From IMG/VR virus record IMGVR_UViG_2799112719_000001: DNA of 64,000 nucleotides. The stretch is one strand, 5' to 3'. The notes under the pieces were generated by a model. It was given only the letters and a program-made list of their open reading frames with translations, ran no database searches and had not been told where the DNA came from. The position numbers were made by a program, and so were the translations under genes. Source of the DNA: a virus. Every line of letters begins with the position of its first letter. Position 1 is the stretch's first letter. This document shows positions 7,950 to 55,966 of the stretch, in pieces.

Positions 7950-8005
7950 TTCATTATTTCATCAATTCATCAATTCACCGTTTCATTAAAAAACAGAAAA
8001 CAATT

Positions 8006-26822: not shown

Positions 26823-26824
26823 AA

Positions 26825-26968
26825 TTATTCTGCATGAATAAAACAGTCTCTCGTTTCTTCGTCGCAATGCTCAATAGTCTGGATGTCTCTGCTGGGGCAG
26901 AAGGCACCGTATTGGTCGAATCGCTCACAGATGCTTGCTAAACCGCAGTTTACGCCGTGACATTTCAT
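26825..26968 (-). CDS. Small Cys-rich protein (47 aa)
   Basis: Own translation: MKCHGVNCGLASICERFDQYGAFCPSRDIQTIEHCDEETRDCFIHAE. Fills the gap between neighbouring genes. Confidence 0.3.
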   Translation of the reverse strand: MKCHGVNCGLASICERFDQYGAFCPSRDIQTIEHCDEETRDCFIHAE

Positions 26969-35500: not shown

Positions 35501-36150
35501 CTCAGTTCCTACGCTTTGCCCGTGTGTTCTTTGCCCAGGAGCATGTCTATGGTGTGCCTATCGACCTCGATTCCATGCTGGAGGAATACAAGGCCGACTT
35601 TGCAGAAGCCAGCAAGAGCCGTGATGATTCCTTCTCGCCAAAACGCTTTAAGGAGCGTGTGCTGTCCTACTGTGAGACGGCTGGCATTCAGATGAACCCG
35701 CCGCAACTCTTCAAGAAAGCAGATGGTAAGGTGCTGAAGAAAGCAGAACAGACCAACTACTTTGCTCATCAGGCATGGCGTACCCGTCGCTACTTTGATG
35801 GGCGAGAGTGGGAGGATGACCAGACTATCCAGCCGAAACAGATACGCGAACTGACCCGTACAGAACATGCGGTATATTTCTATCGTATTGGTAAGGACCA
35901 GATACCGGCCAATAACGACGAATTGATGAAACAGTATGCCGTCTTTATCACTCAGCCCGACCCAGCACCGATTACTGACGATAACGGTAATATCGTGACA
36001 CTGACAGAAGAGGAACAGGCCCGCTGGCGTTCTTATCTGGATTCCCGTCAGCGTAAGCGTGTGGCTGGTGGCTCTGCCGTACCTACGGCTGCCACCGCAA
36101 CCGATGGCTCTCCGTCGGCTCCACCCCAGGAAGAGGATCTGCCCTTCTAA
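32509..36150 (+). CDS. Primase-helicase (SF3/D5-P4-like P-loop NTPase)
   Basis: N-terminal CWCPFCKG zinc motif; Walker A AEGGSGKSTF at about aa 800; Walker B-like VVHWEDVD; acidic tail ending EEDLPF. Confidence 0.6.
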   Translation: MIYDPLIDELAALPLNLLVTPADQQTEEGQTACWCPFCKGNAGSTPHFIIYNRKRGGLYGKPVEHWFCTKTKRGGYGAIELYAAMKGLGYWWRKDSHSAQTFICVGEDLRQACLQLAMLAGHTKEEVGEKWPQLLKRDYRETAIRPQERVTFEPKTGFTPQDLAALGCTTWLDYDGVEHYGFETGNKDAGWHFDPADIQRDFKISAVGKVTLPAVSRKGEPVSEVLVSTPWNPIFVALVDDETEDSGSIFFPALGIPPMVFCNTDEHTSAKVSRWLAGDKVFVRALELKTSENTGVRKAIQELDPEERVTEVKQEWQESSDKNGNVKMELVDVPLRDKDIKAKAIIYCPSAPDAVATYYHMKALRHTYPKQFGSRWYHVCFPYGAVPFSPVHYNKMHRFADNIYTLFPSATKQTLKARDISCRYRDVLRAELPETIGDRAHLYFPRLYCHPVQTVSEFFLAYQMLPREAYQNDEDINRLFSSCITSALSSDPFERKEKRDKNGMVKEVYYTINPATLWEFMASAGYARDVRPDEPDKIGRYVHIDGPFADELEPSSMVQATIEQLKAYARQLNDSRPGMPDEYELMVQAVLRANKEINEKTIASLPSVKLNYADGYGRHVEHFFYDNGALRITENEISMQPYDRIDFNVERAELLHWNMTPIKNLPFEISENPEYRTRLEAIKNKREQKDDNGKPLYTLQQLAQDDNDLALWAQSHRWIVDWKGKNENEMWPALRVIRGFANEEWEQEQRLLHDGKQFSVEEQMELDCRFANLIFCLGRMLWRYRDSKSNCISYLIENVVSAANRAEGGSGKSTFVRVFAGCAAHILNINGRDLVSNKEFSANLAEYQHHKHRVVHWEDVDASLDFGKLYNLTTGDFSVRYMYKDRITIPLSEGPGHVVTSNYPLHDLDDSTMRRVCLGGFSHRFCGQNIMKNKAARYISDIMPDFNAVSPEKLSASSRNQIAMICALAVQFVMRYDEKVDAQKKYMEERTLTQTLTPQFLRFARVFFAQEHVYGVPIDLDSMLEEYKADFAEASKSRDDSFSPKRFKERVLSYCETAGIQMNPPQLFKKADGKVLKKAEQTNYFAHQAWRTRRYFDGREWEDDQTIQPKQIRELTRTEHAVYFYRIGKDQIPANNDELMKQYAVFITQPDPAPITDDNGNIVTLTEEEQARWRSYLDSRQRKRVAGGSAVPTAATATDGSPSAPPQEEDLPF

Positions 36151-36820: not shown

Positions 36821-37972
36821 ATGAAATTTAGTGTTTCCTCCCGTGAGCTGCTGCGCATCCTGAAGGCTACTGGTGCAGTCATCCTCCGTAAGAACAGCCT
36901 TCCCATTCTGGCCGACCACCTCTTTACCCGTGATGGCGATAAATTCTTCATCACTGGCTCTTCACAGGAAAATTCGTTGACGATGCCTATTGGTATTACG
37001 CTCGACAATGGTAGCGACTTCCAGCCGTTCTGTTTGTTGGCCGTTGACATTATCCCGCTGCTGGGTGCTCTTCCTGAACAGCCGATAACGGTAGAAGTGG
37101 ATATGAGCAACCATATTGCTAAGATCATCTACCAGAGTGGTCAGGTGTCGGTGCCTGTTGAAGACAGTGCCGAATATCCGCGTGTGTCCGATGTAAAGGA
37201 GCCAAAGACTTCTTTCGACATCGAGGCCAATATTTTCTTCCCTGCTGTGAAAGCGGCCAACGGCTGTACGGCTATTGACAGTACGCTGCGCCCTCAGATG
37301 TCTGCCGTTGCTCTTGACGTACAGGATGAGGGTGTGGTATTTGTTGGCTCTGATGGCCACTCGCTCTATAAGTATTCCTATCAGCATGGCGCACCGTTCC
37401 TGACTGGCAGTAAGGTGGTTATCCTTATTCCCAACACCATTGCAGGACAGCTTCAGGCTCCCTTTGCCGGTGTTGAGACGCTGACCATCCAGCATGACGG
37501 TAAGCATGTGTGCCTGAAGGCTGGTGATATCACCTTTACCATCCGCGACATTGAACAGAAGTACCCCAACTACAACTCTGTCATTCCAAAGAACAGCCCC
37601 TATCATGCCACCCTGCCTGTGGCTGCTCTCGCTGGTGCAGTGAAGCGTGTGCAACTGATGGCCAGTGATGCGTCAAACATGGTGAAACTCTCCAAGGAAG
37701 GTATGTTCCTGAACCTGTCGGCTGAAGACTACGATTTCTCGAAGACGGCATCAGAGAACCTGGTGCTGGCAGAGGTGGATAATCCGCTGACCATCCCAGA
37801 TGGCTTTGCTATCGGCTTCAAGGCTTCGTCGTTGCTGATGCTTCTGGGTAATATCTCTACCGACAATGTGACGTTGCAGCTGTCTGAACCCTCTCGCGCT
37901 ATTCTGGTCCTGGAGGATGCTCCTAACAGTGCTCTCGTGGAATTGTTGATGCCTATGCAGCTGAATGCCTAA
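36821..37972 (+). CDS. dnaN: DNA polymerase III beta sliding clamp
   Basis: 383 aa. MKFSVSSRELLRILKATGAVI start, length and overall pattern are typical of DnaN. Confidence 0.8.
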   Translation: MKFSVSSRELLRILKATGAVILRKNSLPILADHLFTRDGDKFFITGSSQENSLTMPIGITLDNGSDFQPFCLLAVDIIPLLGALPEQPITVEVDMSNHIAKIIYQSGQVSVPVEDSAEYPRVSDVKEPKTSFDIEANIFFPAVKAANGCTAIDSTLRPQMSAVALDVQDEGVVFVGSDGHSLYKYSYQHGAPFLTGSKVVILIPNTIAGQLQAPFAGVETLTIQHDGKHVCLKAGDITFTIRDIEQKYPNYNSVIPKNSPYHATLPVAALAGAVKRVQLMASDASNMVKLSKEGMFLNLSAEDYDFSKTASENLVLAEVDNPLTIPDGFAIGFKASSLLMLLGNISTDNVTLQLSEPSRAILVLEDAPNSALVELLMPMQLNA

Positions 37973-38337: not shown

Positions 38338-38640
38338 AGTTTTGTATCATCACAATCGGCATGGTGGCTTGTGCCACAACTCACCTCGCCTGCATCGTGT
38401 CATCCGTAATGTCTGTATCACTGCTGGTGATTGTGGTGGGTGGTATCATCCCATCCACCCCTCAGACATAGGGCTGAATATCCTGCGCATCCTCTCCGTG
38501 GATCCTTTCGACCTTTATACGTCACTCCCCGCACCCCAAGGTAAGGATAGCAATTCATACATTCGTGGTGACATCCGCTTTCGCCTCTCCCTGCTCCAGC
38601 AGCTACTAATGTTAATTCTAATCGTGTTATTATCTGTCTT

Positions 38641-39084
38641 ATGAAAAAGTTAAAAGTAAAAGTAATCAATAAGTCTCACCATCCGCTGCCAGCCTATGCT
38701 ACCGCACTTTCTGCTGGCATGGATCTCCGTGCTAATCTCGATGAGCCTATTACGTTGGAACCTTTGTGTCGCAAACTGGTGCCAACAGGTTTATTTATCG
38801 CTCTGCCTCCTGGCTATGAGGCACAGGTACGCCCTCGCTCCGGCCTTGCTCTGAAGCATGGTATCACTTGCATCAATACGCATGGTACTGTCGATGCCGA
38901 CTACAGAGGCGAAGTTGGCGTGTTGCTCGTGAACCTCGGCAATACTCCGTTTGTCATCAATGATGGTGAACGTATTGCTCAGATGGTCGTTGCCCGTCAC
39001 GAACAGGTGGCTTTCGAGTCAGTCGATGTCCTGGATGAAACAGAACGTGGTGATGGTGGCTATGGTCATTCAGGCGTAAAGTAA
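38641..39084 (+). CDS. dut: dUTP diphosphatase
   Basis: [29 protein letters not shown] and [11 protein letters not shown] motifs. Confidence 0.9.
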
Positions 39085-39085
39085 G

Positions 39086-39239
39086 ATGGTAGCACAGTCC
39101 CCTATTGTCCTCGGTCAATATTCTCCGTCTCAGAATGGCATAGTGGTGTCGCCTTTTGGCCCATCACTATGTGTTTCTGGGGGGGGGCAATGGCCATGAT
39201 ACAGACAAACCCAAAATACTTATAGAGTATGACCTGTAG
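39086..39239 (+). CDS. C5-MTase TRD-like mini-ORF, cassette A (out of frame at G9, in frame at G8)
   Basis: MVAQSPIVLGQYSPSQNGIVVSPFGPSLCVSGGG then NGHDTDKPKILIEYDL*. ATG lies 1 nt after the dut stop. Confidence 0.55.
39179..39187 (+). repeat. G9 tract in cassette A
   Basis: Counted directly in the sequence. Confidence 0.9.
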
Positions 39240-39391
39240 GCATTCTGTTACGACAACTCTCATTAACCCTGACAGGGGGGGGGCAAATCGCTCGTACCAT
39301 CAAGTATCAGTATTATAAAACCAGCCTGGCTAACTTTCTGCTGAAAACACAGCGTGGAGCAACCGGCGTATTGATAGAGTATGATTTTTAG
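39229..39391 (+). CDS. TRD-like mini-ORF, cassette B (out of frame at G9, in frame at G8)
   Basis: MTCRHSVTTTLINPDRGG then QIARTIKYQYYKTSLANFLLKTQRGATGVLIEYDF*. The ATG lies inside the EYD codons of cassette A. Confidence 0.45.
39275..39283 (+). repeat. G9 tract in cassette B
   Basis: Counted directly in the sequence. Confidence 0.9.
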
Positions 39392-39568
39392 AGTAACCAA
39401 TGTGGGGAAACCCAAGCAGATTAGGGGGGGCAAATCCGACCTATCAATGTTACGCAAGATCTTTGCGCTGCCACTCTCACTACCCGCTACGATGCTGTTG
39501 GGCCTACTAATATTATCACATTGGCCCATTACCCGATGACAGTTGTATTGATAGAACATGATCTATAA
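39381..39568 (+). CDS. TRD-like mini-ORF, cassette C (out of frame at G7, in frame at G8)
   Basis: MIFRVTNVGKPKQIRGG then QIRPINVTQDLCAATLTTRYDAVGPTNIITLAHYPMTVVLIEHDL*. Paralog of cassette I. Confidence 0.55.
39424..39430 (+). repeat. G7 tract in cassette C
   Basis: Counted directly in the sequence. Confidence 0.9.
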
Positions 39569-39736
39569 GGCAATAGGTTGGACTCGCTCTGCTTCTGGAC
39601 GTGGTGACGTTACTCGTTACCATTTGAAGAATGTTTGCAATACCATCACCTCATTTTCAGGGGGGGCATTGGCAAAGATTCCACAACAGGAATGTATAAC
39701 ACCACTCCTTATATCTTAGTTGAGCACGAACTGTAA
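39558..39736 (+). CDS. TRD-like mini-ORF, cassette D (out of frame at G7, in frame at G8)
   Basis: MIYKAIGWTRSASGRGDVTRYHLKNVCNTITSFSGG then GIGKDSTTGMYNTTPYILVEHEL**. Closest to the M.HhaI segment ITLSAYGGGIFAKTGGYLV (recalled from memory). Confidence 0.6.
39660..39666 (+). repeat. G7 tract in cassette D
   Basis: Counted directly in the sequence. Confidence 0.9.
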
Positions 39737-39747
39737 TAAGAAAAAAT

Positions 39748-41201
39748 ATGATTGCAAAGATTTATCCAGACAACCACCCTGAACTTCAGGGCAAAAAGGA
39801 TCCGAAGCACCCTGTGAGGTACTTCGATATCCGAAAACTCACCCCCCCGAATGCTATACGCTCATGGGCGTTCCAAGCCCATACATCGACGTGCTGATGA
39901 GTACCGAACAGCGACCTTATACGGCTTTTGTCGGTGTTGATAATCAGCTGGCAGTATTCGGACTTGAACCGACGGCAACGATGAAAGAAGTAGAGGAAGC
40001 CTACCGTGAGGCCCTGGAAAGCCTTGAAGCTCCTATTCCCGATGATGAAGAGAATGATGATGAAGTCCCCGTTTCCGAAGATGAAGACGATGCCGAAGAG
40101 ATTTCCCTTATGCGCCAGAACTACGAACTGGCCTACAACACTATTCTGAAAGCACCGACTGAAGAAAAGTTTGGCCCTGTGCAGATCATCAGTAATAGCA
40201 ACCACTATAAACTCGCTGGCAACTCCATCGTCTGTGATGTTTTGATGTATATCTATGAGGAAATTTTCTATCCTACTGGCCGTCGTTTGCCTGCCGAACA
40301 GCAGGATATGTTTGCACTGCCTCAGTTCCAGCTTTCCCGTAACTGGAAAAAGCAACCTCTAAAACTCGTTACTTTGTGTTCTGGCTATGATTCGCAAGCG
40401 ATTGCATTCGATATGTTGAAAGAGCGTTATCCTGATTTCGATTATAGATTGATGGCTTGGGCAGAGTTTGACCCTGAAAGTAAACGTGCCCTTGATGAGC
40501 AGCCTGCCGTTGTTGCTCATAATCTTCTTTTTCCAGATGCAAAAGACCTCAATCGTGGCGACATGACAAAGGCTGACTGGAGCGACCTTGCAGATGAAGG
40601 AATCGACTTCCTGACTTATTCTACTCCATGTCAGAGTATTTCACAGGCTGGCAAACGAGAGGGCATCAAAAAAGGCTCTGGCACCCGTTCTGCCGTACTG
40701 TGGCATACTGAGGATGCCGTAAAGGTGATGCACCCAAAGATCCTTCTGCAAGAGAATGTCCGTGCGCTGATTAACAGCGTCAATATGCCCGACTTCCGCG
40801 AGTGGTGTCAACTGTTGGAAAAGTATGGATATGTCAACTTCCTGGCACCGTCATTCCCGACACCATGGGGAGAAACGAAACGTGATAAGAAGACTATACC
40901 AGGCATTCTGAATAGTAAGCATTATGGTGTGCCGCAAAATCGTGAGCGTGTCTATATGATTTCTGTCCGTAAGGATGTGCTTGACGATACGCAATATGAG
41001 TTTCCGCGTCCATTCCCATTGGAAAAGTGCATTGCAGATATCCTGGAAGATAATGTCGATGAGCGTTTCTTCCTGAAGCCCGATTCAGTAATCAAATTCC
41101 TTACAGTGAATGAGAGTGACCAGCAGGCTCAGATATTCTATATTGTCACAGATCATAAACTCTCTGATGAAGAGATAGCAAAGGCTCGTGCCGGTCAATA
41201 G
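39748..41201 (+). CDS. C5-cytosine DNA methyltransferase catalytic core, circularly permuted (IX-X-I-IV-VI-VIII), N-terminus out of frame at a C7 tract
   Basis: RKLTPPECYTLMGVP (IX), KLAGNSIVCDVL (X), LCSGYDSQ (I), TPCQSISQAG (IV), QENV (VI), QNRERVYMI (VIII). ATG 39748 joins the tracked ORF 39864-41201 if the C7 tract becomes C8. Confidence 0.8.
39842..39848 (+). repeat. C7 tract in MTase motif IX
   Basis: Counted directly in the sequence. In frame at 8. Confidence 0.9.
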
Positions 41202-41203
41202 AT

Positions 41204-41416
41204 ATGATGTACTTGCGTGATAGAGACCCAGCCAGTTCTAATGACTCTGTGAGAGTATGCTCCAGTGTAAACCGTGACCTCGATTGCATCAGTTTTCGTG
41301 GTGCCCATGCTGACAGAAACTTTCATCAGGTCATAGAACTTGGCTCTTCTCGCGTCACGAATACAATAACGTCCGTTCAAAAAGATAACCTCGTATGGAT
41401 AGAGAGAATGATATAA
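41204..41416 (+). CDS. TRD-like mini-ORF, cassette F (intact, no tract)
   Basis: The ORF ends GSSRVTNTITSVQKDNLVWIERMI*. It starts 2 nt after the core stop codon. Confidence 0.55.
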   Translation: MMYLRDRDPASSNDSVRVCSSVNRDLDCISFRGAHADRNFHQVIELGSSRVTNTITSVQKDNLVWIERMI

Positions 41417-41601
41417 AAACCACTCCCGCCACCGTGCCCGATGAGTCAGCAGCGGGTGCCCCTGTCGGAAAGCCGTTGGGTATTATCCGTTACCCTCACG
41501 GCAAGTTTCGTGGTGGCATACGTCCGGCTGATATTCTCCCTCCATTAACCAATTCCGATTTTCAAAACAACAACTTTGTCATTATCGAATATGACCTCTA
41601 A
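41395..41601 (+). CDS. TRD-like mini-ORF, cassette G (intact, no tract)
   Basis: The ORF ends GGIRPADILPPLTNSDFQNNNFVIIEYDL*. It overlaps the end of cassette F. Confidence 0.55.
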   Translation: MDRENDIKTTPATVPDESAAGAPVGKPLGIIRYPHGKFRGGIRPADILPPLTNSDFQNNNFVIIEYDL

Positions 41602-41853
41602 ATCCGCTGTAAGGCATTATATCCCCAGCCGTCCATTCCTCTCGACCGCTACGAGGGGGGGCAATTCGTGTTGCAAGTCAGACAGGCAACCGAACTGGGC
41701 TATATCGAGTGTGTCAGCGGTGGGTGTTTCGATATGGCTTACCCATCCTCTCAGCTTCGACGCTCCCGTGTCAAAGAGGATGGGCGTGTTGCTTCCGTCC
41801 TGATGTCTGGTGAAACGTCTCAATGTGTGTTTATAGAATATGACTTTGATTAA
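41591..41853 (+). CDS. TRD-like mini-ORF, cassette H (out of frame at G7, in frame at G8)
   Basis: MTSKSAVRHYIPSRPFLSTATRGG then QFVLQVRQATELGYIECVSGGCFDMAYPSSQLRRSRVKEDGRVASVLMSGETSQCVFIEYDFD*. Confidence 0.5.
41655..41661 (+). repeat. G7 tract in cassette H
   Basis: Counted directly in the sequence. Confidence 0.9.
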
Positions 41854-42040
41854 GCTGTCGCATACAACCTCCGCACCTCCAAAACCCTTACAGGGGGGGG
41901 TACTTCTTCCCATTAACACAGCATCCGGCGGTATCTGTTGCACCCTTAACACCCGTTACGACGGTATGCAACTCCCCGAAGACATCCTCAGTCTCGCACA
42001 TTATCCCAAGACGGTCATCCTTATTGAGCACTATCTATGA
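41840..42040 (+). CDS. TRD-like mini-ORF, cassette I (intact; tract is G8)
   Basis: MTLIKLSHTTSAPPKPLQGGVLLPINTASGGICCTLNTRYDGMQLPEDILSLAHYPKTVILIEHYL*. Confidence 0.6.
   Translation: MTLIKLSHTTSAPPKPLQGGVLLPINTASGGICCTLNTRYDGMQLPEDILSLAHYPKTVILIEHYL
41893..41900 (+). repeat. G8 tract in cassette I (in frame)
   Basis: Counted directly in the sequence. Confidence 0.9.
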
Positions 42041-42155
42041 GGGTAGAATCAATGTTTCGCAGGATGGTTTAATTATTTCTCCTTTTGGCATTTCTCCTAC
42101 TCATACCGCTGGCCACGGTAATTGTCCCAAAATCCTAATAGAGTACGATTTGTAG
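42024..42155 (+). CDS. TRD-like cassette J (no ATG, possible TTG start; paralog of A without a G tract)
   Basis: Own translation: STIYEGRINVSQDGLIISPFGISPTHTAGHGNCPKILIEYDL*. Confidence 0.3.
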   Translation: MSTIYEGRINVSQDGLIISPFGISPTHTAGHGNCPKILIEYDL

Positions 42156-42163
42156 CCACTGTG

Positions 42164-42190
42164 CCCGCTGGTTATCCAGCGGGTTTTCTC
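42164..42190 (+). terminator. Rho-independent terminator after the MTase cassette array
   Basis: CCCGCTGG-ttat-CCAGCGGG followed by TTTTCTCTTT. Confidence 0.65.
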
Positions 42191-42219
42191 TTTGTCCCTA
42201 CCTCCCGCTATTTCTGCAC

Positions 42220-42227
42220 TATCTTTG
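42220..42227 (+). promoter_or_regulatory. -7 box TATCTTTG upstream of the tape measure gene
   Basis: Consensus match 23 nt upstream of the ATG. Confidence 0.4.
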
Positions 42228-42249
42228 CCTAAAATAAACGTGATTTTAT

Positions 42250-45200
42250 ATGGCAGATACAAAGAAATCCGAGGTAGTCATTACCTGTAACGCCCAACAG
42301 CCAAAGGCCGCTGTCCGTGCTATGGAAACGGAGCTGAAACGTCTTCAGGCTGCATACAAGCAACTCTCCGACGCTGGTAAGGCCGGCACAGAGAGGGCAA
42401 AACAGATGGCTCACGAAATCAAGGAACTCTCCATCGCCGTGAAGGAGGGTAAGGCCAACATGGATAAGATTGTTACCGTGACAAACAATCTTTCCAACTC
42501 TTCCCTGTCACAGCTGCAACGTGCTTTGCGCCAGGTGAAGAAAGAAATGGGCCGTGTCAGTACCGATTCGCCTAAACTCGATGACCTGCGCCAGAAATAC
42601 AAGGCCATCACCGACCAAATCAAAATCCTTCAGGGTGAAATGGTCAACATCCAGAAGCACATGGGCAATTTCTCCCAGACTTCTGACGCATGGCTCTCTC
42701 GTGCCATCAATCAGCAGAAGCAACTCGTGGCTCAGACTGACAAAACGAATAGTGGCTATCAGCGTCAGGTGGATATTCTGCATCAGCTTCAGGCCGAACA
42801 GCAGAATAGGGCAATGGCTACCGTATTGAATGGTGGTGCTACTGCTGATGATCTCCGTGCCGCTCGTGCCTCTATCACGTCTTACCGTGACCAGTTAGGT
42901 AAAGGTGGTATTATGCCTGTTGGTGGTGACGTGGCACGGGAAATTGAAGCCTGTAATGTCGCTCTGAAGAAATGTGATGAGCAGTTGGATGTTATTGCCG
43001 GTAAGGAGAAACAGATTGAGCCGACCGTGCAGGAGATAGAGCAGGATATCACGAAATTGGTTGGTAGTCTGGCTAACGCCTCTCCTGAACAGCTCCGTAA
43101 GGGTTTGGAGCAATGCCGTAACCAACTGGATAAGATGGCTGCAAACGACCCCAACCGTCAGAAGTGGGTTACTTGGGCAAAGCAGCTGAAAACGGCTCTC
43201 GAAGGTGTGGACCGTGAAGCCGTTGACATCGACAAAGTGATGCGTAACCTCAAAAAAGAGCCATTGGAGAATCTTCGTAAGGCTGCAAAGCAGTTGGAAG
43301 AGGAAATGGTGAAACTGAATCGTGAGGATGCAAAATATAAGGATCGCCAGAAACAACTACAAAAGATTCGTGGTGAGATAGACAGTGTTACGCGCTCTAT
43401 CAATAATCAGGCTTCTGCATGGAGTACGACGTTTAGAAATATCTCCATGTACTTTGGTGTGTTCCAGCTCTTCTCGATGGCACAGCAGAAGCTCCAAGAA
43501 ATGCTCCGTAGTAACCTGGCTTACTCCGACCAGTTGGCAGACATCCGTAAGGTGACTGGACTGGCCACTAAGGATGTGAACGAATTGGCTGAAAGCATAG
43601 CAAAACTTGATACGCGCACAAGCATTCAGGAGTTGTCAGATTTGGCGTACCAAGGCGGTAAGATGGGATTTGGAAAATACGGTGTGGAAGGCATGGTCGA
43701 ATTTGTCCGTGCTGCCGATCAAGTTAAGGTTGCTCTTTCCGATGACCTCGGCGAAGACAGCCTCTTGCAGATTTCAAAGCTCATTGATACGATGGGCCTC
43801 ATTCCGAAACTCGGTGTCGAAAAATCCATGCTGTCTGTAGGATCTGCCATTAACCAGCTTGCGGCCACTTCTACTGCCAGTGGTACGCATATCGTGGACT
43901 TCTCGAAACGCCTTACAGGTTTGTCGCGTATTACAGGAATTACTACGCCGGAGCTTTTGGCATTGGGAAGTGCAGCGGATGCTTTAGGGCAGGCTCCTGA
44001 AGTTGCAGCCACGGCCTTTGGTAAACTCTTCACGTCTTTGCAGACCAATCACAATCTGATTGAACAGCAGCTAAACATGGAGAAAGGTACTATCAATAAC
44101 CTTTTCTCACAGGGTAAGGCTATGGAGGCCATTCTGCAAATCATGGAAAAGATGCGTGATAAGGGTAACATGAATGCGCTGGGTAACATCTGGAAAGATC
44201 TTGGTTCTGAGGGTCAACGCTTGATAGGTGTGATGGCCACCATGTCGAAGAATGTAGATACTGTACGCGCACATGTAGAGGAAGCTAACGAGGCTTTTGA
44301 AGAGGCAACATCGCTGACCACGGAGTATGCCATGAAGCAGGAAACGGCTAATGCCATTCTTGAACGTGCCAACCAACTTTGGGTAAGAACATTCGTGAAC
44401 CCAGAGGGTGTTGACACCGTGAAGGAGCTGTCGCAGGCTTGGTATGACATGAGCCAAAAGCTGACCTCTTCGGCTCTCTACATGGGTCAAATAAGACTCG
44501 TGCTGACAATGATTATTGCTGCCGTGAAGCTGCTGGTGGTTCTGTTGCCTACGCTTATCCAGTTCCTGTTGTTCAAGGGTGCTTATATGGGCGTGATGGC
44601 TCTCTATCGTGGCTTCGTGGCAATGAAGACTGCCATTATCGGTGCTATGGTGGCACAGCAGGGCCTTAACACGGCTATGAAGGCTAACATCTTCGGACTG
44701 ATAATCTCCCTGATAGCTTCTGCCGTCGTTTGGCTAACAAACTATGGCAATGCTGCCGATGATGCTGCCAACAAGCAGAAGACGATGAACGAGTACATCA
44801 AGGAGGCTGCTGCTGAGATCGACAAAGAGACTCGTAAACTGGAATCCTATAAGCGTGTCCTGGAAGACGCGAACACGTCACAGGCACAGCGTGAGCGCAT
44901 CCTGAGACAGTTTAACCGTACTTACGGCACCTATCTGAATAAACTCGGCATCGAGGTTAATTCGGTGGATGACCTGCGTAAGCATTACGCGCTCTTGAAT
45001 GATGAACTGCGCAAAAAAATATATTACCAGACGAAGCAACGCGCTTACGATCAGGAGTTGGGCGATAAGGCTGGAGAGTTGGGCAAAAAGGCTCGTGCTT
45101 TCTCTGACCTGACGGTAAATAATTCGCGTGATGGCTCTTTTGCTGCCTACGATACCAAATGGCTTGAAGATCAGATAAACCAGAATCAGAACACTTATGG

Positions 45201-47889
45201 TAGTGTAAACTGGGTTTCCATCTATTCTGACATGGTGCAGAGCCGTTTCGGTAGGCGTACTGATGGTAGAAGTGGCTTTAATAACGACTATTCGGTATTT
45301 ACCGATATGGCTGGTACTGAGCATAATGTAGCAGCTTATGGCAAGGCTATTCGTGAATATGTGGATGCCTGGCAGGAGTATAACAAGACGAAAAAGAGTA
45401 TTGATGCAGCTCTTGACCCGCTCATCGGCGACTACGATCCGTTTGCTGAGACTCCAGGCGAACTGACGAATGATGCTGTTGACAAAGAAGCTGAGAAGCG
45501 TCGCCGTGCAGAGGAAGCAGCCCGTCGCAAGGCTCTTCGTGCTGAAATGCGCGAGGAACAGGATAAGGCCAAGGCTATCATCGACAATGTAAAGAACTAC
45601 TACGAGCGTCAGATTGCTGCCATTACGGAAATGGCTACCCGTACCGGCATGGATTCAGAGCTTCAGAAGAAACTCGTGGATGGTATGACGGTACGCATGA
45701 ATAGCGCATTGGCCAATGTTCGCCAGGCTATTGCCGGCACAGAAAACGAATGGGCTGATTTCCGTCAGTCGATGATGGATGATCTCTACGAGCCGCTTTC
45801 TGCCGATGGCACCAACCAGTCAACGAAGTTGCTCGACAATATCATTCACAATGACATCGACCAGCTGAAAAAGATGATTGAAACGCTCTCTAAGGAGCTG
45901 GGGCAGAATGGTTCCGTATTGCTCGATCAGATATGGCGTAAGGCTACTGAGAATGAGTTGGCCAATGCAAAACAGGCAAATACGGCATACCAGGCCCGCC
46001 AAAAGGTGTTGTTGGAAAAGAACTATACCGGCAAAGTAAACCGTGACTATGAGGGTCAGATGGAGCAGTTGGGCGTGGCCGAGCTGACTTCCAACCAGTC
46101 GAAACAACTGATGCAATGGTCTCAGGAAGGTAAGTCTGAGGACATTCAAAACTTCGTTAATAGTCGCTCTCAGTTGTGGCAACAGGCATTCTTGAAAGCT
46201 CGTGAGCATATTGTGGATGTCTTTGCTGCTGATGTCTCTACTGAAGATGGCCAGAAGGCTATGCTTACGTTGCTCTTTGGCGAGGACTACAATGGTACGT
46301 TATCCGGCTCTGCCTTGGAGTCTATGCTGAATATGGACTTGCAGCAGTGGCAGGTGTTCTATCAGAAGCTCATCGAAATGTCCGACGCTTACACCGATGC
46401 CCAGAAGAAAGCCTATGACGAAGCAAAGCGCCGTGCTGACTTCGTGTTTAACAACCGTCCTGACATCCAGGGCATCGACAAAGCCACACAGGATCTTTCG
46501 ACTATCAATAGCGACCAGCAGCGTTTCGGCTCTGATAAGAACTTCACACAGCAGCTTGGAATGTCCTGGGATATGGATTCTGACCCAGAGATACTGCGCT
46601 ATCGCCTGCTGTCGGAAAAGGCCCGTCTCTACTATCAGGAAATGAAGTCGCTCCGTGAGCAGGATAAGATCAGCGAACAGCAGTTGACCGATGCTAAACG
46701 TCAGATGATGGAGGCACAGACGGCCATGGCCGATAAGGTGGCCGCTAAGTTCAATGAGCGTGTTCAACTGTTGCAGTCATTCAGCGAACCGATGGCGACC
46801 TTTGCCGAAGGGGTAGGGGAGTACCTGGAAAGCCTCTCTGATGATGCGGAGGATTCTAACGAGAAGATGAAGAACATGGCTAAGACCATGCTCAAAGCCT
46901 ACGCCAAGATGACGCTTCAGCTGATGGCCGAAGACCTGACTCGCCGCGTCACCAAGCAGCTATACCATCGTCAGGAGGAAGCCGACGAAACGCTGCATCA
47001 GCAGACATTGCTCCAGATACAACAGATGTACCAGGCACTCATGCTGACAGCACAGCAGACGGGCGACGCTGCACGTCTCACACAGCATTCGACATCTAAC
47101 GCTGCCGAACTGTCTGAGGAAGCAACGGCCACAACGGGTAAGGTGGGACTTGGTATTGCCGGTGGTGCTGCTAAGATCATTGGCACCTTGGGCTTCTGGG
47201 GTATTCCGCTCATCGCTGTTATCACAGCCTTGCTGATGGGCTTGCTCTCATGGGCTATCTCTGCTGCCTTTGGCGGTAGTGACAGTGGCGGTGCTGATTC
47301 TGGTCCTAACGTAAAGCTGGCCACGGGTATGCTGACATACGACGGTGGTAACGTGCAGTCTGTTGGTGGCGGTTCCACTCCATCCGGCGACACTACAAGC
47401 CCTGTCCTCGGTACAGATGGCAAGGTGTATAACGCTAAACAGGTAGGTAAACTTCAGACGGGCATTGTTACACAGCCTATCGCTACCATGGTCAACGGCC
47501 AGCCGTCTCTCGTGGGCGAGAAAGGCCCTGAAATGGTAATTGGTAGGGAAACAACAGCAGCTATGCAAATGGCGCGTCCTGACCTTATCAATGAGATTGT
47601 GAAGTTCGATAAAAACTTCTCAGGGCGTGGATTCCGCACTTATGACGATGGCAACCTGTCCGACTTCACGGTGCCCGATGCGTCAGCAGCGGGTGAAAAC
47701 ATGCTCACCTCTGATGACATCCAGGGATTCCGTGATACGATGGCAGAGTTTACGGCCATGATGTTGTTACTCCAGAAGAATGGCCTGCACGTCAACAAAT
47801 TCGGACGTGGAAGCGTCACTCAGGAGTCTGCCGACGGTGCCGCATTCATGCGTCGTAACTCCGGCGATCGTCTGTGGCGTAAGGGCTAA
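42250..47889 (+). CDS. Tail tape measure protein
   Basis: 1879 aa. Coiled-coil N-part, TP901-type core-like segment (GKMGFGKYGVEGMVEFVRAADQVKVALSDDLGEDSL...), central TM helices and a Gly-rich C-part. Confidence 0.7.
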   Translation: MADTKKSEVVITCNAQQPKAAVRAMETELKRLQAAYKQLSDAGKAGTERAKQMAHEIKELSIAVKEGKANMDKIVTVTNNLSNSSLSQLQRALRQVKKEMGRVSTDSPKLDDLRQKYKAITDQIKILQGEMVNIQKHMGNFSQTSDAWLSRAINQQKQLVAQTDKTNSGYQRQVDILHQLQAEQQNRAMATVLNGGATADDLRAARASITSYRDQLGKGGIMPVGGDVAREIEACNVALKKCDEQLDVIAGKEKQIEPTVQEIEQDITKLVGSLANASPEQLRKGLEQCRNQLDKMAANDPNRQKWVTWAKQLKTALEGVDREAVDIDKVMRNLKKEPLENLRKAAKQLEEEMVKLNREDAKYKDRQKQLQKIRGEIDSVTRSINNQASAWSTTFRNISMYFGVFQLFSMAQQKLQEMLRSNLAYSDQLADIRKVTGLATKDVNELAESIAKLDTRTSIQELSDLAYQGGKMGFGKYGVEGMVEFVRAADQVKVALSDDLGEDSLLQISKLIDTMGLIPKLGVEKSMLSVGSAINQLAATSTASGTHIVDFSKRLTGLSRITGITTPELLALGSAADALGQAPEVAATAFGKLFTSLQTNHNLIEQQLNMEKGTINNLFSQGKAMEAILQIMEKMRDKGNMNALGNIWKDLGSEGQRLIGVMATMSKNVDTVRAHVEEANEAFEEATSLTTEYAMKQETANAILERANQLWVRTFVNPEGVDTVKELSQAWYDMSQKLTSSALYMGQIRLVLTMIIAAVKLLVVLLPTLIQFLLFKGAYMGVMALYRGFVAMKTAIIGAMVAQQGLNTAMKANIFGLIISLIASAVVWLTNYGNAADDAANKQKTMNEYIKEAAAEIDKETRKLESYKRVLEDANTSQAQRERILRQFNRTYGTYLNKLGIEVNSVDDLRKHYALLNDELRKKIYYQTKQRAYDQELGDKAGELGKKARAFSDLTVNNSRDGSFAAYDTKWLEDQINQNQNTYGSVNWVSIYSDMVQSRFGRRTDGRSGFNNDYSVFTDMAGTEHNVAAYGKAIREYVDAWQEYNKTKKSIDAALDPLIGDYDPFAETPGELTNDAVDKEAEKRRRAEEAARRKALRAEMREEQDKAKAIIDNVKNYYERQIAAITEMATRTGMDSELQKKLVDGMTVRMNSALANVRQAIAGTENEWADFRQSMMDDLYEPLSADGTNQSTKLLDNIIHNDIDQLKKMIETLSKELGQNGSVLLDQIWRKATENELANAKQANTAYQARQKVLLEKNYTGKVNRDYEGQMEQLGVAELTSNQSKQLMQWSQEGKSEDIQNFVNSRSQLWQQAFLKAREHIVDVFAADVSTEDGQKAMLTLLFGEDYNGTLSGSALESMLNMDLQQWQVFYQKLIEMSDAYTDAQKKAYDEAKRRADFVFNNRPDIQGIDKATQDLSTINSDQQRFGSDKNFTQQLGMSWDMDSDPEILRYRLLSEKARLYYQEMKSLREQDKISEQQLTDAKRQMMEAQTAMADKVAAKFNERVQLLQSFSEPMATFAEGVGEYLESLSDDAEDSNEKMKNMAKTMLKAYAKMTLQLMAEDLTRRVTKQLYHRQEEADETLHQQTLLQIQQMYQALMLTAQQTGDAARLTQHSTSNAAELSEEATATTGKVGLGIAGGAAKIIGTLGFWGIPLIAVITALLMGLLSWAISAAFGGSDSGGADSGPNVKLATGMLTYDGGNVQSVGGGSTPSGDTTSPVLGTDGKVYNAKQVGKLQTGIVTQPIATMVNGQPSLVGEKGPEMVIGRETTAAMQMARPDLINEIVKFDKNFSGRGFRTYDDGNLSDFTVPDASAAGENMLTSDDIQGFRDTMAEFTAMMLLLQKNGLHVNKFGRGSVTQESADGAAFMRRNSGDRLWRKG

Positions 47890-51294: not shown

Positions 51295-51738
51295 ATGGAA
51301 AAAACTTTGAATTACCCCCCCCTGGAAGAGCTGAAGACGCTCACGGAGGAAGAGGTCAGAGCATGGTTTGGAAAAGTCCGTATCTGGCGTGATGAGCACA
51401 TCGACGAACTGCGTCATCAACAAGAGACGGCCATCTTTAACATCAGGACTGAGCAAAAGGTGGAACGTAACCGTATTATCTGCCTGATTGAACTGAAACG
51501 CTCTCAACTGCCGACTGGTGGCAATACAGATGAGCGTGAGCGAACACTGACACTGCGTAACGAGATTCATAATCTCGATTACGAAATGCAGACGAATGAC
51601 ATCAACAGCCGTAAAAAAATTGCGGATATCAAGTATGAGTCTAAACGGGCCATCAATGACATTCAGCGTCAATGGGAAACCGCTACGGGAACCTTGAAAC
51701 AAGCCCTCGCTTTCGTCTGCAATAAGACTGAGGACTAA
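51295..51738 (+). CDS. Coiled-coil hypothetical protein (contains an in-frame C8 tract)
   Basis: 147-aa ORF. The C8 tract at 51315-51322 encodes PP. Confidence 0.5.
   Translation: MEKTLNYPPLEELKTLTEEEVRAWFGKVRIWRDEHIDELRHQQETAIFNIRTEQKVERNRIICLIELKRSQLPTGGNTDERERTLTLRNEIHNLDYEMQTNDINSRKKIADIKYESKRAINDIQRQWETATGTLKQALAFVCNKTED
51315..51322 (+). repeat. C8 tract (in frame)
   Basis: Counted directly in the sequence. Confidence 0.9.
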
Positions 51739-55173: not shown

Positions 55174-55731
55174 ATGTCTGAGACTAAAAAACATTATCGT
55201 GTCTATATGGCCCTGGACCTCGTGACAGAGGATGAGGGCAGGACATTGGCCATGGTGAATGTTATGCGTATGTCGAATGAACCGGCACCATTGCCTATGA
55301 TGACACAGTTCATGGGTGGCATGTCAAACCTGGCTCCAAAGGTGATGGTGGTGCAGCAGCCTACGCATGGCAAAACAAACCAGCGTACAGGTGTTGATCC
55401 TGACCTTGATTGTGATGACTTTGAACGTGGAGAGCCTGAAGGCTATTGTGATGGTATGGGACATTACCATTGTGATGAATGTAAGTGGCGTAGTCAGGAG
55501 TCGATTAACCAAAAGCACGAGGACTTCATGCGTCATCAGAACCATAAAAAGGAATGGCCGAAGATTAAAGCCATTGTTATTGATTCTGGCGAAGAGGTAA
55601 TGGTCGATGACCATGCTATTGATTTCTTTGGAACCAGTTATTATAACATGTGGCATAATACAGCAAATGGTATGACATACCATGACGATGACCTGGAATT
55701 TATCGACGAAAGACTGCAAAAAACAACATGA
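55174..55731 (+). CDS. hypothetical protein
   Basis: 185-aa ORF. Confidence 0.5.
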   Translation: MSETKKHYRVYMALDLVTEDEGRTLAMVNVMRMSNEPAPLPMMTQFMGGMSNLAPKVMVVQQPTHGKTNQRTGVDPDLDCDDFERGEPEGYCDGMGHYHCDECKWRSQESINQKHEDFMRHQNHKKEWPKIKAIVIDSGEEVMVDDHAIDFFGTSYYNMWHNTANGMTYHDDDLEFIDERLQKTT

Positions 55732-55966
55732 CTATGAATCAGTATAATGTATCGGGGGGGTAAAATCGCCCTTCAGAGGGAATGGACTAAGCCGTACTGC
55801 TATGCTCTTTAAGATAGCAACATTGGCAGGTCATAAGTTGACTGTTCCCGAAATGAATAAGTTTAAGAATGTCAATCCTCGGAGTCTTGAACGTGTGTAT
55901 AACGAAGTGATCCGCATGGGTGATTCTGGTAATGCCATGTTTGCCCTACGATTGATACTGAAATAA
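55728..55966 (+). CDS. Small ORF interrupted at a G7 tract (in frame at G8)
   Basis: ATGA-coupled start. MTMNQYNVSGG then VKSPFRGNGLSRTAMLFKIATLAGHKLTVPEMNKFKNVNPRSLERVYNEVIRMGDSGNAMFALRLILK* fills an otherwise empty 240-nt gap. Confidence 0.45.
55754..55760 (+). repeat. G7 tract
   Basis: Counted directly in the sequence. Confidence 0.9.

Follow-up and report, generated by a model that had tools for sequence, protein, structure and literature searches.

A permuted C5-cytosine methyltransferase core and an array of putative detached target-recognition domains in a phage genome

Can a single C5-cytosine methyltransferase (MTase) draw its specificities from several target-recognition domains (TRDs) made as separate small proteins? 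The question is raised by a viral DNA stretch of 64,000 nucleotides (the window), in which nine same-strand mini-ORFs with the common end motif '[ILV]3-E-[YH]-[DE]..stop' surround one C5-MTase core. The original prediction took them for a library of switchable TRD C-halves, unlinked from the core. Our analysis partly supports this interpretation. The best reading is that of separately translated, individually phase-variable TRD subunits serving one core in trans, which we consider probable, with moderate confidence. A phage population of this kind could carry many DNA-methylation patterns and so escape from host restriction.

Anatomy of the array

When all six frames of the 64 kb were scanned, the end motif with its stop turned up nine times, and all nine matches fall in the array. 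This is far beyond chance, and the array is real. The cassette coordinates and end motif given originally were right; of the ten short ORFs counted then, nine are cassettes, accompanied by the core (Table 1). Every cassette closes with a terminal hydrophobic strand and acidic residues ('ILIEYD') followed by the stop. The downstream ATG sits within the E-Y-D codons of the preceding cassette, usually 11 or 14 nt ahead of the end of the preceding stop, and this overlap of starts and stops provides translational coupling between adjacent cassettes. The ATG of cassette A is separated from the dut stop by 1 nt, and cassette D closes with two successive stops, TAA TAA, 11 nt upstream of the core ATG. 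A terminator-like hairpin 8 nt 3' of the J stop closes the array and precedes the tape-measure gene (42250-47889). From dut, whose L030 homolog carries PF00692/PF22769, to this terminator (38641-42194, +) the segment appears to form a single operon in a Bacteroidales-type phage.

Table 1. Coordinates of the array and its neighbours in the window
Feature	Position	Strand	End motif + stop	Characteristics
dut (dUTPase)	38641-39084	+		ORF; adjoins array upstream
Cassette A	39086-39239	+	39216-39239	canonical-looking TRD, 'YSPSQNGIVVSPFGPSLCVSGGG...KPKILIEYDL'; G9 39179-39187 = OFF, G8 = ON
Cassette B	39229-39391	+	39368-39391	'RGGQIARTIKYQYYKTSLANFLL...GVLIEYDF'; G9 39275-39283 = OFF, G8 = ON; ATG within E-Y-D codons of A
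Cassette C	39381-39568	+	39545-39568	'IRGGQIRPINVTQDLCAATLTTRYDA...VVLIEHDL'; G7 39424-39430 = OFF, G8 = ON
Cassette D	39558-39736	+	39713-39736	'CNTITSFSGGGIGKDSTTGMYNTTPYILVEHEL'; G7 39660-39666 = OFF, G8 = ON
Permuted C5-MTase core	39748-41201	+		484 aa at C8; C7 39842-39848 in motif IX
Core N-terminal segment	39748-39828	+		MIAKIYPDNHPELQGKKDPKHPVRYFD; family-specific, nearly invariant; columns M66-D92 of alignment A1
Core motif IX	from 39829	+
Acidic insertion between IX and X	39900-40199	+		direct repeats D3, D6; length differs among homologs
Core motif X	40206-40232	+
Core motif I	40365-40397	+
Core motif IV (PCQ)	40614-40643	+
Core motif VI (ENV)	40743-40769	+
Core motif VIII (QNRER)	40926-40958	+
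Core TRD N-half and tail	40995-41198	+		conserved
Cassette F	41204-41416	+	41393-41416	'HQVIELGSSRVTNTITSVQKDNLVWIERMI'; intact ORF, no tract
Cassette G	41395-41601	+	41578-41601	'ILPPLTNSDFQNNNFVIIEYDL'; intact ORF, no tract
Cassette H	41591-41853	+	41827-41853	'TRGGQFVLQVRQATELGYIECVSGG...CVFIEYDFD'; G7 41655-41661 = OFF, G8 = ON
Cassette I	41840-42040	+	42017-42040	'LQGGVLLPINTASGGICCTLNTRYDG...VILIEHYL'; G8 41893-41900 = ON
I/J toggle	41840-42155	+	J 42132-42155	TRD J 'RINVSQDGLIISPFGISPTHTAGHGNCPKILIEYDL' at 42027-42155, reached from ATG of I
Terminator-like hairpin and T run	42163-42194	+		9-bp stem, 7 GC pairs, then TTTCTCTTTG

In the assembly, intact ORFs that start with ATG are limited to F, G and I. 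Homopolymer runs interrupt A, B, C, D, H and the core, J is without an ATG of its own, and I is the sole tract-bearing unit in frame. All seven tract-bearing ORFs become continuous at a tract length of 8.

Judged by its motif order, the core is a circular permutant in which motifs IX-X are followed by an acidic linker, motifs I-VIII and then the conserved front half of the variable region. In phmmer alignments, motif IX lies N-terminal and motifs IV-VIII lie C-terminal. PF00145 matches the core as encoded in two stretches (130.6 bits) and an un-permuted construct in a single stretch (profile 43-323/324, 147.5 bits); Foldseek gives M.MpeI, M.HhaI and M.HaeIII as top matches of the core fold. 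Because the core is permuted, cassettes stand on both sides of it. It carries no recognition loops of its own. The C7 tract leaves it out of frame in this assembly, so the consensus genome would make no enzyme; an in-frame relative, P0001 (484 aa), is 97% identical. The Met of MIAKIYPD and the next 27 residues are nearly invariant, also in homologs with a TRD fused upstream; L037 beta and P0177, which are cis enzymes, lack them. This segment may be a docking platform for the terminal strand of the TRDs.

Relationship of the cassettes to TRDs encoded in cis

The TRD nature claimed for the cassettes was borne out by comparison with L037, a Muribaculaceae MTase with TRDs between motifs VIII and IX. 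Cassette J aligns to the cis TRD at L037 alpha 287-323 (65% identity, E 2.6e-16), and in L037 beta the cis TRDs at residues 105-140, 174-207 and 223-246 are matched by C (40%, E 3e-6), F (37%, E 2e-6) and G (42%, E 1e-3), respectively. I aligns to L037 beta 104-124 (E 8e-5), A to an L037 cis TRD (E 1e-3), and the G type also occurs in cis in P0177. Moreover, an exhaustive phmmer search with J returned 77 clusters, among them full-length PF00145 proteins in which J-, F- and G-type TRDs stand in tandem ahead of motif IX. On these alignments, J, C/I, F, G and A are genuine TRDs, homologous to the tandem cis TRDs of canonical multispecific C5-MTases. No cis counterpart in L037 was detected for types B, D and H; H matches phrog_16427 'DNA methyltransferase' weakly (E 0.004).

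The M.HhaI segment given in the original prediction was correct in substance: the M.HhaI sequence, 100% identical to PDB 10mh_A, contains GKGGQGERIYSTRGIAITLSAYGGGIFAKTGGYLVNGKTRKLHPREC. The A-type profile aligns to M.HhaI 221-257 and had no match among PDB sequences. A family cassette, 'RRRLYSPYGIAPTVYGYQGGG', aligns to M.HhaI 236-257 with 13.6 bits, a score equalled in 0 of 300 shuffles, and similarity to M.HhaI is undetectable for C/I, H and F. Both recognition loops, the RGGQ type and the T-L/GGG type, are present in the cassettes, which are thus more than the C-halves originally proposed. In an AlphaFold2 model of a natural TRD-core fusion both TRD parts had pLDDT below 50, and adding cassettes to the un-permuted construct lowered its Pfam score by 4-7 bits.

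Detachment from the core, as predicted, is seen in each TRD having its own start and stop. A-type TRDs occur solely as stand-alone proteins of 48-79 aa in a database of 5.8e9 proteins, and the ON form of A (50 aa, P0121) has an identical copy in two other contigs.

Conservation and tract variation in related phages

The architecture is kept in about 30 related phage loci, whose cores are 53-98% identical and which carry 1-12 detected cassettes each. We parsed 164 cassettes in 30 loci, 88 of them with tracts. In 74 of these 88 the two half-frames, both open, join in frame at a length of 8, and dN/dS is 0.08-0.36 per cassette type (F about 0.08, H about 0.13). The Tyr or His codon that forms the next ATG is TAT or CAT at 52 of 52 junctions, a synonymous choice (TAT background before D/E, 37%); TAC or CAC is found only at cassette ends without a detected next cassette, including D and J of the window. 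The cassettes are therefore conserved as coding units.

Cassette order, number and side vary between relatives. The D-type TRD is conserved in three contexts: as a core fusion in L017, as a detached unit a short way upstream of the core in the window, and as a detached unit over 2.5 kb downstream of it in L006-L009. In many relatives one TRD remains joined to the core in cis, so that detached copies might in principle serve as spares. The clade of the window (the window itself, L001, L003, L004 and L032) has no cis TRD, with core and cassettes conserved.

Seven of the 11 G/C runs of 7 or more in the window fall in the 2.8-kb array (binomial P about 9e-8), and overlapping G7 matches number 22 in the whole window against 3.8 expected. 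Between genomes that are 93-99% identical, G/C tract length differed in 13 of 19 comparisons of consensus assemblies (not reads), A/T runs in 0 of 12. Muribaculaceae isolate genomes have G7 to G12 at homologous sites, and three contigs break off no more than 8 nt from a tract. About 63% of the tracts across loci are OFF, near the two-thirds expected without selection. This hypervariability of the G runs supports the predicted individual switchability of the cassettes.

The tract of cassette I has two outcomes besides OFF. At G8 its ATG leads to TRD I, at G7 or G10 to an alternative frame that continues into J (product of 104-105 aa), and at G9 to 25 aa with neither TRD. The same toggle is present in L002 and L011, thus in three lineages, with the alternative frame open for 55 codons, and other metagenomes contain gene calls for such products of ~100 aa (P0160, P0164, P0175). 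The toggle is meaningful only at the level of translation, and what it yields is separate from the core.

Proposed working, alternatives and known systems

According to the reading we prefer, the locus would be a modular multispecific C5-MTase taken apart into a core and nine TRD mini-genes. Each TRD protein of 50-105 aa would bind the single core in trans, filling the gap between the C-terminal tail of the core and the invariant N-terminal 'MIAKIY...VRYFD' hairpin; it would complete the small domain and direct methylation at its own target sequence. The seven G/C tracts would be contingency loci that change length by a slipped-strand mechanism. The core tract in motif IX would act as master switch and A, B, C, D and H would each have one private ON/OFF switch, while the I tract would select TRD I, TRD J or neither. 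Progeny phage populations may then hold mixed methylation repertoires, a possible bet-hedge in which protection from host Type II restriction is balanced against exposure to methylation-dependent restriction.

It is conceivable, though we think it unlikely, that only a cis TRD joined to the core works and that the detached cassettes are a silent store comparable to pilS. They would be moved or mixed into the expressed position, over evolutionary or infection time, by recombination at the boundaries that they share, the G-tract ('GGGGGGGGCAA') and 'ATAGAGTATGA'. The shuffled order and number of cassettes and the core-fused TRD of many relatives fit this view, as does L032, where a precise deletion from the A tract to the B tract has created an in-frame A::B chimera. 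However, silent donors would not need an ATG kept by synonymous choice, a stop of their own or a uniform in-frame length, and core and cassettes are conserved in the clade of the window, which has no cis TRD. Moreover, every cassette is directly oriented, inverted repeats were not detected and no recombinase is among the ORFs examined; downstream cassettes cannot reach the N-terminus of the core by deletion, and the I/J toggle is a translational device.

Somewhat less likely still is that RNA-polymerase or ribosomal slippage on G7-G9 yields constitutive, sub-stoichiometric TRDs and core whatever the DNA length. On this view the tracts would govern dosage instead of acting as ON or OFF switches, with the TRDs still acting in trans. 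Homopolymers this long are known to be slippery as templates, all tracts (7-9) are within one base of the in-frame length, and a gene whose core is OFF in the consensus could hardly be useful if slippage did not restore it. Against this, tract lengths vary in the DNA of near-identical genomes and up to G12 in isolates, the signature of slippage at the DNA level. Both processes are compatible and can coexist.

We give little credence to the idea that the mini-proteins are made but do not serve as MTase subunits, being for example free TRD-like DNA-binding peptides that mimic targets of, or inhibit, host restriction or nucleases dependent on methylation, or that modulate a host MTase. Expression as free small proteins and the absence of tracts from F and G would suit such roles, and assembly with the core is itself our inference. 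Yet module-by-module homology links the cassettes to cis TRDs of working-type multispecific MTases, a core devoid of recognition loops is always present with them, and the same TRD type is found core-fused in relatives. Finally, debris of a multispecific MTase gene in decay, with accumulated stops and frameshifts, or homopolymer sequencing errors, as six of seven tract-bearing units out of frame might suggest, is very improbable given the shared architecture, dN/dS, in-frame joining and retained start codons described above, the invariant A/T runs, the in-frame core and A known from other contigs, and a divergence of the loci that excludes one recent clone.

For the arrangement of detached TRDs, presumed novel in the original prediction, no description was found in Pfam, PHROGs, cultured-phage records, reference databases or the literature searched. 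To our knowledge, no C5-MTase has separate specificity subunits, and none was found in the literature searched. Its components have known counterparts. M.SPRI, M.phi3TI, M.rho11sI and M.H2I are multispecific C5-MTases of Bacillus phages whose TRDs all belong to the same polypeptide and lie between motifs VIII and IX. Like the window, they combine one core with several short modular TRDs of different sequence, a likeness that is one of general description; the sequence comparison was with uncharacterised Bacteroidales or metagenomic multispecific MTases (L037, P0177, P0198), of which L037 and P0177 have cis TRDs homologous to J, C/I, F, G and A. Cis modules also end in a hydrophobic strand with acidic residues. 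In contrast to them, the TRDs of the window each have their own start and stop, most have a private homopolymer switch, and the core is permuted.

Split C5-MTases (M.AquI alpha/beta, M.EcoHK31I) and the engineered complementation of M.HhaI, M.SssI and M.MpeI from fragments are precedents for an enzyme that is broken in the variable region and reassembles from separate polypeptides; L037 itself looks alpha/beta split. Those enzymes consist of two large halves, each with catalytic motifs, whereas in the window the TRD alone (about 50 aa) is detached, in nine alternatives. A separate, exchangeable specificity determinant is also found in HsdS subunits and phase-variable Type I and Type III MTases (phasevarions), where simple-sequence-repeat or recombinational switching makes the methylome of a population heterogeneous. 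These are N6-adenine MTases with a large HsdS; the window has a C5-MTase with up to seven independent switches on one enzyme.

Natural circularly permuted C5-MTases (M.BssHII, M.Alw26I, M2.Eco31I, M.Esp3I, M2.BsaI; PMC5944983) share with the core motifs IX-X ahead of I-VIII and a permutation point in the variable region. They are monospecific with a cis TRD, unlike the core of the window with its separate TRD genes on both sides. A permuted core flanked by TRDs is consistent with an origin by tandem duplication of a multispecific gene.

The homopolymer tracts, with reversible frameshifts and bet-hedging, resemble phage contingency loci. PolyG stretches within receptor-binding proteins of Campylobacter phages are such loci. 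Others have been described in T2/T4 (bioRxiv 10.1101/2025.10.21.683753). Known phage contingency loci concern host recognition or single genes, whereas the tract array of the window would gate modules of DNA-modification specificity, and one of its tracts, unlike theirs, would select between two alternative products.

The array and its methyltransferase core

Nine short plus-strand frames, the cassettes A to D and F to J, flank one C5-cytosine methyltransferase (C5-MTase) gene, referred to as the core, between dut and a terminator-like hairpin. All nine end in a terminal hydrophobic triplet-E-Y/H-D/E motif, with the stop at most three codons later. In a six-frame scan of the whole window the end motif with its stop occurred nine times in 64 kb, and all nine occurrences were in the array. 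The positions in the original prediction proved exact when ORFs and end motifs were checked on the plus strand. The frames it described as short ORFs are intact for F, G and I; A, B, C, D, H and the core are broken at homopolymer runs in the assembly. In each of the seven units with a tract, the frame is continuous when the run is exactly 8 long. These 2.8 kb hold seven of the 11 G/C runs of at least 7 in the window (P ~9e-8). Mini-ORFs and frameshifted cores of this kind are at present uncalled or labelled 'hypothetical'.

Coordinates of features in the window
Feature	Position	Strand	Remark
LPD1-domain protein	24-2375		context gene
NAD-dependent DNA ligase	7913-9619		context gene
Radical-SAM domain protein	14463-15472	minus	phrog_9298, E 2e-84, match from profile position 39
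84-aa ORF, '...RNRGGG'	15218-15472		likely N-terminal part of the radical-SAM protein
G10 run (C10 on plus)	15354-15363		between these two parts
Beta-class N6/N4 DNA methyltransferase	16047-16808	minus	PF01555, 46 bits, 'DLPY'
G9 run (C9 on plus)	16156-16164		at '...YSQMGGG', SAM-motif region
570-aa protein with HicA-toxin-like domain	25155-26867	minus	context gene
1213-aa DUF5906 protein	32509-36150		context gene
DNA polymerase III beta clamp	36821-37972		context gene
dut	38641-39084
Cassettes A, B, C, D	39086-39736	plus
C5-MTase core	39748-41201	plus
Acidic, internally repeated insertion in core	39900-40199		EAPIPDDEENDDEVPVSEDEDDAEE
Cassettes F, G, H, I, J	41204-42155	plus
ATG of cassette I	41840	plus
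Terminator-like hairpin	42163-42194
ORF	51295-51738	plus
C8 run	51315-51322		20 nt into this ORF
ORF	55174-55731
G7 run	55754-55760		just past this ORF

Repaired to C8, the core encodes 484 aa, and an in-frame protein from elsewhere (P0001) is 97% identical to it. Its motifs follow the order IX (RKLTPPEC), X (AGNSIV), an acidic insertion, I, IV, VI and VIII (LCSGYDS, TYSTPCQ, LLQENV, QNRERVYM), and they share one frame only at C8. The C-terminal part after motif VIII consists of ~64 residues of the conserved first portion of the variable region. PF00145 matches the core as encoded in two stretches (130.6 bits, cut-off 22) and the core un-permuted in silico, with the N-terminal part moved to the end, in a single stretch (147.5 bits, profile 43-323 of 324). 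In phmmer searches of PDB sequences, motif IX aligns with M.MpeI residues 335-355 and motifs IV-VIII with residues 115-253. The AF2 model of the homolog P0004, a natural fusion of a target-recognition domain (TRD) and a core, was matched by Foldseek to M.MpeI (4dkj), M.HhaI and M.HaeIII (E 1e-8 to 3e-7); built from a 70-sequence alignment with a mean pLDDT of 64, the model is informative for the catalytic fold only, both TRD parts being unreliable (pLDDT <50). By these motifs the core is a C5-MTase with motifs IX-X N-terminal to I-VIII in one polypeptide and with the break in the variable region, and as far as its sequence goes it has no recognition loops of its own. Nor does it share a polypeptide with a TRD in the window, where D ends in TAA TAA ahead of the core ATG. 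The acidic insertion falls between motifs IX and X, and some homologs of the core (P0094, P0096 and P0074 among them) have an extra insertion of 60-100 aa between motifs III and IV.

The cassettes as target-recognition domains

Searches of the nine cassettes against Pfam and PHROGs gave no match except a weak one of H to a 'DNA methyltransferase' PHROG; the cassettes have no Pfam or PHROG family of their own, and an A-type profile matched no PDB sequence at E <=10. The decisive evidence that the cassettes are real TRDs comes from the cis TRDs of relatives. When bacterial genomes were scanned with the core profile, distant relatives came up in Bacteroidales (Muribaculaceae isolates, Bacteroides and Prevotella MAGs). 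One of these, L037 (Muribaculaceae Isolate-036), encodes an enzyme of canonical motif order on two ORFs: alpha carries motifs I-VIII, the N-half of the TRD region and one TRD, and beta carries six tandem TRDs followed by motifs IX and X. Six cassettes align to individual TRDs of this enzyme. An exhaustive phmmer search with J (1.84 billion representatives) returned 77 clusters, comprising stand-alone ORFs of ~50 aa, ORFs of ~100 aa with a C-terminal match, and full-length PF00145 proteins (183-257 bits to PF00145) with an internal match. Two proteins, P0177 and P0198, carry J-type TRDs in tandem with other TRDs between motifs VIII and IX, and P0177 has F- and G-type TRDs as well. The resemblance of the cassettes to C5-MTase TRDs claimed in the original prediction is borne out by this homology to the tandem cis TRDs of L037, P0177 and P0198.

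Ends, homopolymer runs and L037 matches of the array units
Unit	End	Run in assembly	Run lengths compared	Match in L037
A	KILIEYDL	G9	9, 7, 8, 8	alpha 287-323, E 1e-3
B	GVLIEYDF	G9	9, 7, 9
C	VVLIEHDL	G7		beta 105-140, 40%, E 3e-6
D	YILVEHEL	G7	7, 7, 9, 8, 7
Core		C7	7, 8, 8, 8, 8
F	LVWIERMI	no run		beta 174-207, 37%, E 2e-6
G	FVIIEYDL	no run		beta 223-246, 42%, E 1e-3
H	CVFIEYDFD	G7	7, 6, 8, 7, 8
I	VILIEHYL	G8	8, 8, 9, 9, 8	beta 104-124, E 8e-5
J	KILIEYDL			alpha 287-323, 65% over 37 aa, E 2.6e-16

Comparison with M.HhaI points to the same region. A cassette type from the related locus L007 (RRRLYSPYGIAPTVYGYQGGGNLQPLVLIEYE) aligns to both M.HhaI recognition loops (236-257, GQGERIYSTRGIAITLSAYGGG) with 13.6 bits, a score that no shuffle out of 300 attained. 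Profiles of the A and J types align to this segment too, in an identical register, with marginal scores that 4 and 6 of 300 shuffles attained, respectively; HMMs of the other cassette types gave no match to M.HhaI in this comparison with 300 shuffles. Cis TRDs also end in a hydrophobic strand and acidic residues (KVLVEN, ALILEE, GILTIEN, HLVVERGD), so the 'IEYDL' end is where such a module normally stops. Insertion of each cassette into the un-permuted core lowered the PF00145 score by 4-7 bits, the Pfam model handling the TRD as an insertion. The nine modules fall into at least seven sequence types. Homologs of TRDs that lie in tandem in cis, they are nevertheless not arranged in tandem within one polypeptide between motifs VIII and IX: every module has its stop and the next its own ATG, except for J, which has no ATG of its own in any clade member.

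The Bacteroidales enzymes were surveyed at six loci (L035-L039 and L060; Paramuribaculum intestinale, Muribaculaceae Isolate-036, Bacteroides and Prevotella MAGs) and are canonical-order, alpha/beta-split multispecific C5-MTases. They contain 7-8 tandem TRDs with G7-G12 and C7-C12 runs (e.g. L037 3736-6064). A C run after the TRD of alpha acts as a switch that leads either to a stop or, in a different frame, into one more TRD ('RVYDSNGIATALTTGWHPYIMES'); the stop of that frame overlaps the ATG of beta (ATGAATAA). An N6/N4 methyltransferase gene lies directly upstream.

The core protein retrieves ~30 phage-like loci from IMG/VR and Logan assemblies (core identity 53-98%), most of which have an array in which 1-12 cassettes ending in the same way were detected. 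Cassette types recur from locus to locus, in changed order and on different sides of the core. Among the 50,697 deposited phage genomes no close relative of the window was found: megablast with 38600-42400 gave no match, and tblastn with the core matched only the catalytic half of unrelated phage MTases (<45% identity) and no annotated relative. A-type cassettes occur in a collection of 5.8 billion proteins only as stand-alone proteins of 48-79 aa, one of which is identical to A of the window at G8.

Start and stop signals of neighbouring cassettes are interlocked. Counted back from the end of a stop codon, the ATG of the following cassette lies at 11 nt in 42 cases and at 14 nt in 17, and it arises from the Tyr/His codon of the preceding E-Y/H-D/E end. 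Wherever a cassette follows, this codon is TAT or CAT (52 of 52 ends), against a genome-wide background in which Tyr before Asp/Glu uses TAT in only 37%. The four TAC/CAC ends all lack a detected cassette after them and include D, which precedes the core, and J, the last in the array. Pairwise dN/dS within cassette types is 0.08-0.36, values that are rough because synonymous sites are near saturation.

Cis TRDs on the core polypeptide are present in relatives. Many, such as P0004, have a TRD of another type fused to the core, and in the L017 clade a D-type TRD is fused to it in frame. The D-type TRD is conserved in all three contexts, fused, detached 11 nt upstream of the core as in the window, and detached >2.5 kb downstream of it as in L006-L009. 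The core Met and the next 26 residues (MIAKIYPDxHPxLQGKKDPxHPVRYFD) are near-invariant, even in TRD-fused relatives, and absent from cis enzymes; this segment is a candidate docking platform for the last TRD strand. In the human-associated L017 clade most cassettes have no G run, and in one 103-aa mini-protein (L017 3543-3855) a B-type TRD runs on into a C-type TRD, the first end, 'VLSEYSF', having no stop. Mini-proteins can therefore carry two TRDs.

Homopolymer tracts and the I/J toggle

In seven coding sequences of the array a homopolymer sets the frame, with an in-frame length of 8, and its length is polymorphic among near-identical genomes. Comparison with genomes 93-99% identical to the window (L001, L003, L004, L030, L031, L032) revealed differing lengths in 13 of 19 comparisons of G/C runs vs 0 of 12 for A/T runs of 6-7. 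Homologous places in Muribaculaceae, isolates included, and other Bacteroidales genomes have G7-G12 and C7-C12. Across the family loci 164 cassettes were parsed, 88 of them with a G run, of which 74 are in frame at length 8, 10 at 9 and 4 at 7; the observed lengths are 6 (n=4), 7 (n=32), 8 (n=33), 9 (n=17) and 10 (n=2), which leaves 33 cassettes ON and 55 OFF. Three independent metagenomic contigs (L001, L003, L030) end within 8 nt of a cassette G run (window 39429, ~39652 and 39652), which suggests assembly breaks from run-length heterogeneity within the sample. The predicted individual switching of the cassettes agrees with this hypervariability of run length between near-identical genomes, as seen in consensus assemblies. 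At C7 the core is OFF, and of the cassettes only F, G and I can be read, so that a genome with the assembled sequence would not methylate.

The run of cassette I has a further property. From the ATG of I, G8 gives TRD I (66 aa), G7 or G10 leads into an alternative frame, open for ~55 codons, that runs into TRD J (104-105 aa), and G9 gives 25 aa. The arrangement recurs in L002 and L011 (76% core identity), and gene calls from other metagenomes include I/J-like products (P0160, P0164, P0175). In L008 no J follows I, and the alternative frame is closed. Such a toggle makes sense at the translation level only, and its product is unattached to the core. Together with the kept starts and stops, it suggests that the TRDs are translated apart from the core, as the parts of split C5-MTases of the M.AquI type are.

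Further run-interrupted genes are found elsewhere in the window. A second DNA methyltransferase, of the N6/N4 beta class, is truncated by a G9 run, its PF01555 match ending at profile position 182 of 221; the run is probably another contingency switch on a modification gene. The radical-SAM gene, parted by G10 from its likely N-terminal ORF, is a third run-interrupted gene.

Alternatives, proposed mechanism and known systems

The main competing explanation regards the detached cassettes as a silent archive that serves as a reservoir. Cassettes are indeed shuffled between relatives, and L032 (170-379, Logan DRR452114; window 39190/39275) has an exact deletion between the A and B G runs that fuses the first half of A in frame to the second half of B (P0144, 69 aa). 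If this is not an assembly artefact, the runs also act as recombination or slippage points able to make hybrid cassettes. An archive, however, fits poorly with conserved starts and stops, with the I/J toggle and with a clade that has no cis TRD at all. Flanking inverted repeats and a dedicated recombinase, as expected of a shufflon, an hsdS inverton or pilE/pilS, were not found: inverted repeats at the cassettes are short and at chance level, and the window ORFs examined include no recombinase. Transcriptional or ribosomal slippage at the runs, in place of heritable switching, is possible and would not exclude the latter. A role of the peptides outside methylation is unlikely in view of their module-for-module homology to cis TRDs. 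Finally, debris of a decayed tandem MTase, the outcome that the original prediction had itself set against its reading, is excluded by the conserved architecture, the selection on cassettes seen in dN/dS and the kept start codons, and sequencing error as the sole cause of the run lengths by the stable A/T runs and by G7-G12 in isolate genomes.

Several ways of joining or rearranging the cassettes were also rejected. All cassettes are in direct orientation, which rules out an inversion shufflon, and their stops mix TAG, TAA and TGA, which rules out stop-codon reassignment. Read-through or a +1 frameshift into the neighbouring cassette is opposed by the A/B junction, where the next frame has a stop two codons before the ATG, and the junctions show no conservation of a slippery sequence. 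Distances that reach hundreds of nucleotides rule out ribosome hopping.

Read from its sequence, the locus consists of a permuted, loop-less core and nine homologs of multispecific-MTase TRDs, laid out as translationally coupled mini-genes, with seven hypervariable runs gating the core and six TRDs. We propose that each TRD protein would complete the small domain of the core in trans and set the target sequence, its last strand docking on the N-terminal segment of the core. Run slippage would give each progeny genome its own subset of active TRDs, which may hedge protection from Type II restriction against exposure to methylation-dependent restriction. Permutation by duplication and truncation of a multispecific ancestral gene would leave cassettes on either side of the core, as seen here. 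On balance we lean towards the view that C5-MTases can use separately encoded specificity subunits of ~50-100 aa, with a phage library of up to a dozen, each tract-gated, a further tract as master switch of the core and one or more three-state tracts that select between two subunits, whereby one genotype would yield combinatorial 5mC methylomes.

Since the work on SPR and phi3T, it has been a question how a multispecific MTase brings its alternative TRDs to a single catalytic site. If the proposal is true, a C5-MTase can receive its TRD in trans as an autonomous, exchangeable module, and phage counter-defence diversifies methylation through several independent contingency switches, extending phage contingency loci from host recognition to DNA modification. 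A small core with plug-in specificity peptides of ~50 aa would be attractive for programmable methylation tools, and the prediction of methylation motifs from metagenomes would be aided.

Permuted, split and multispecific C5-MTases, phase-variable methyltransferases and phage contingency loci are already known. In the literature searched nothing turned up on TRDs encoded as mini-proteins of their own, on arrays of such units with individual switches, or on a tract that selects one of two TRDs. To our knowledge C5-MTases are thought to be single-chain enzymes, and this one would be the first with separate specificity subunits, a logic like that of HsdS that is here proposed for C5-MTases. Circularly permuted C5-MTases occur naturally, e.g. 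M.BssHII (PMC5944983); enzymes of this type share the permuted motif order of the window core but carry the TRD in cis, whereas in the window it is detached.
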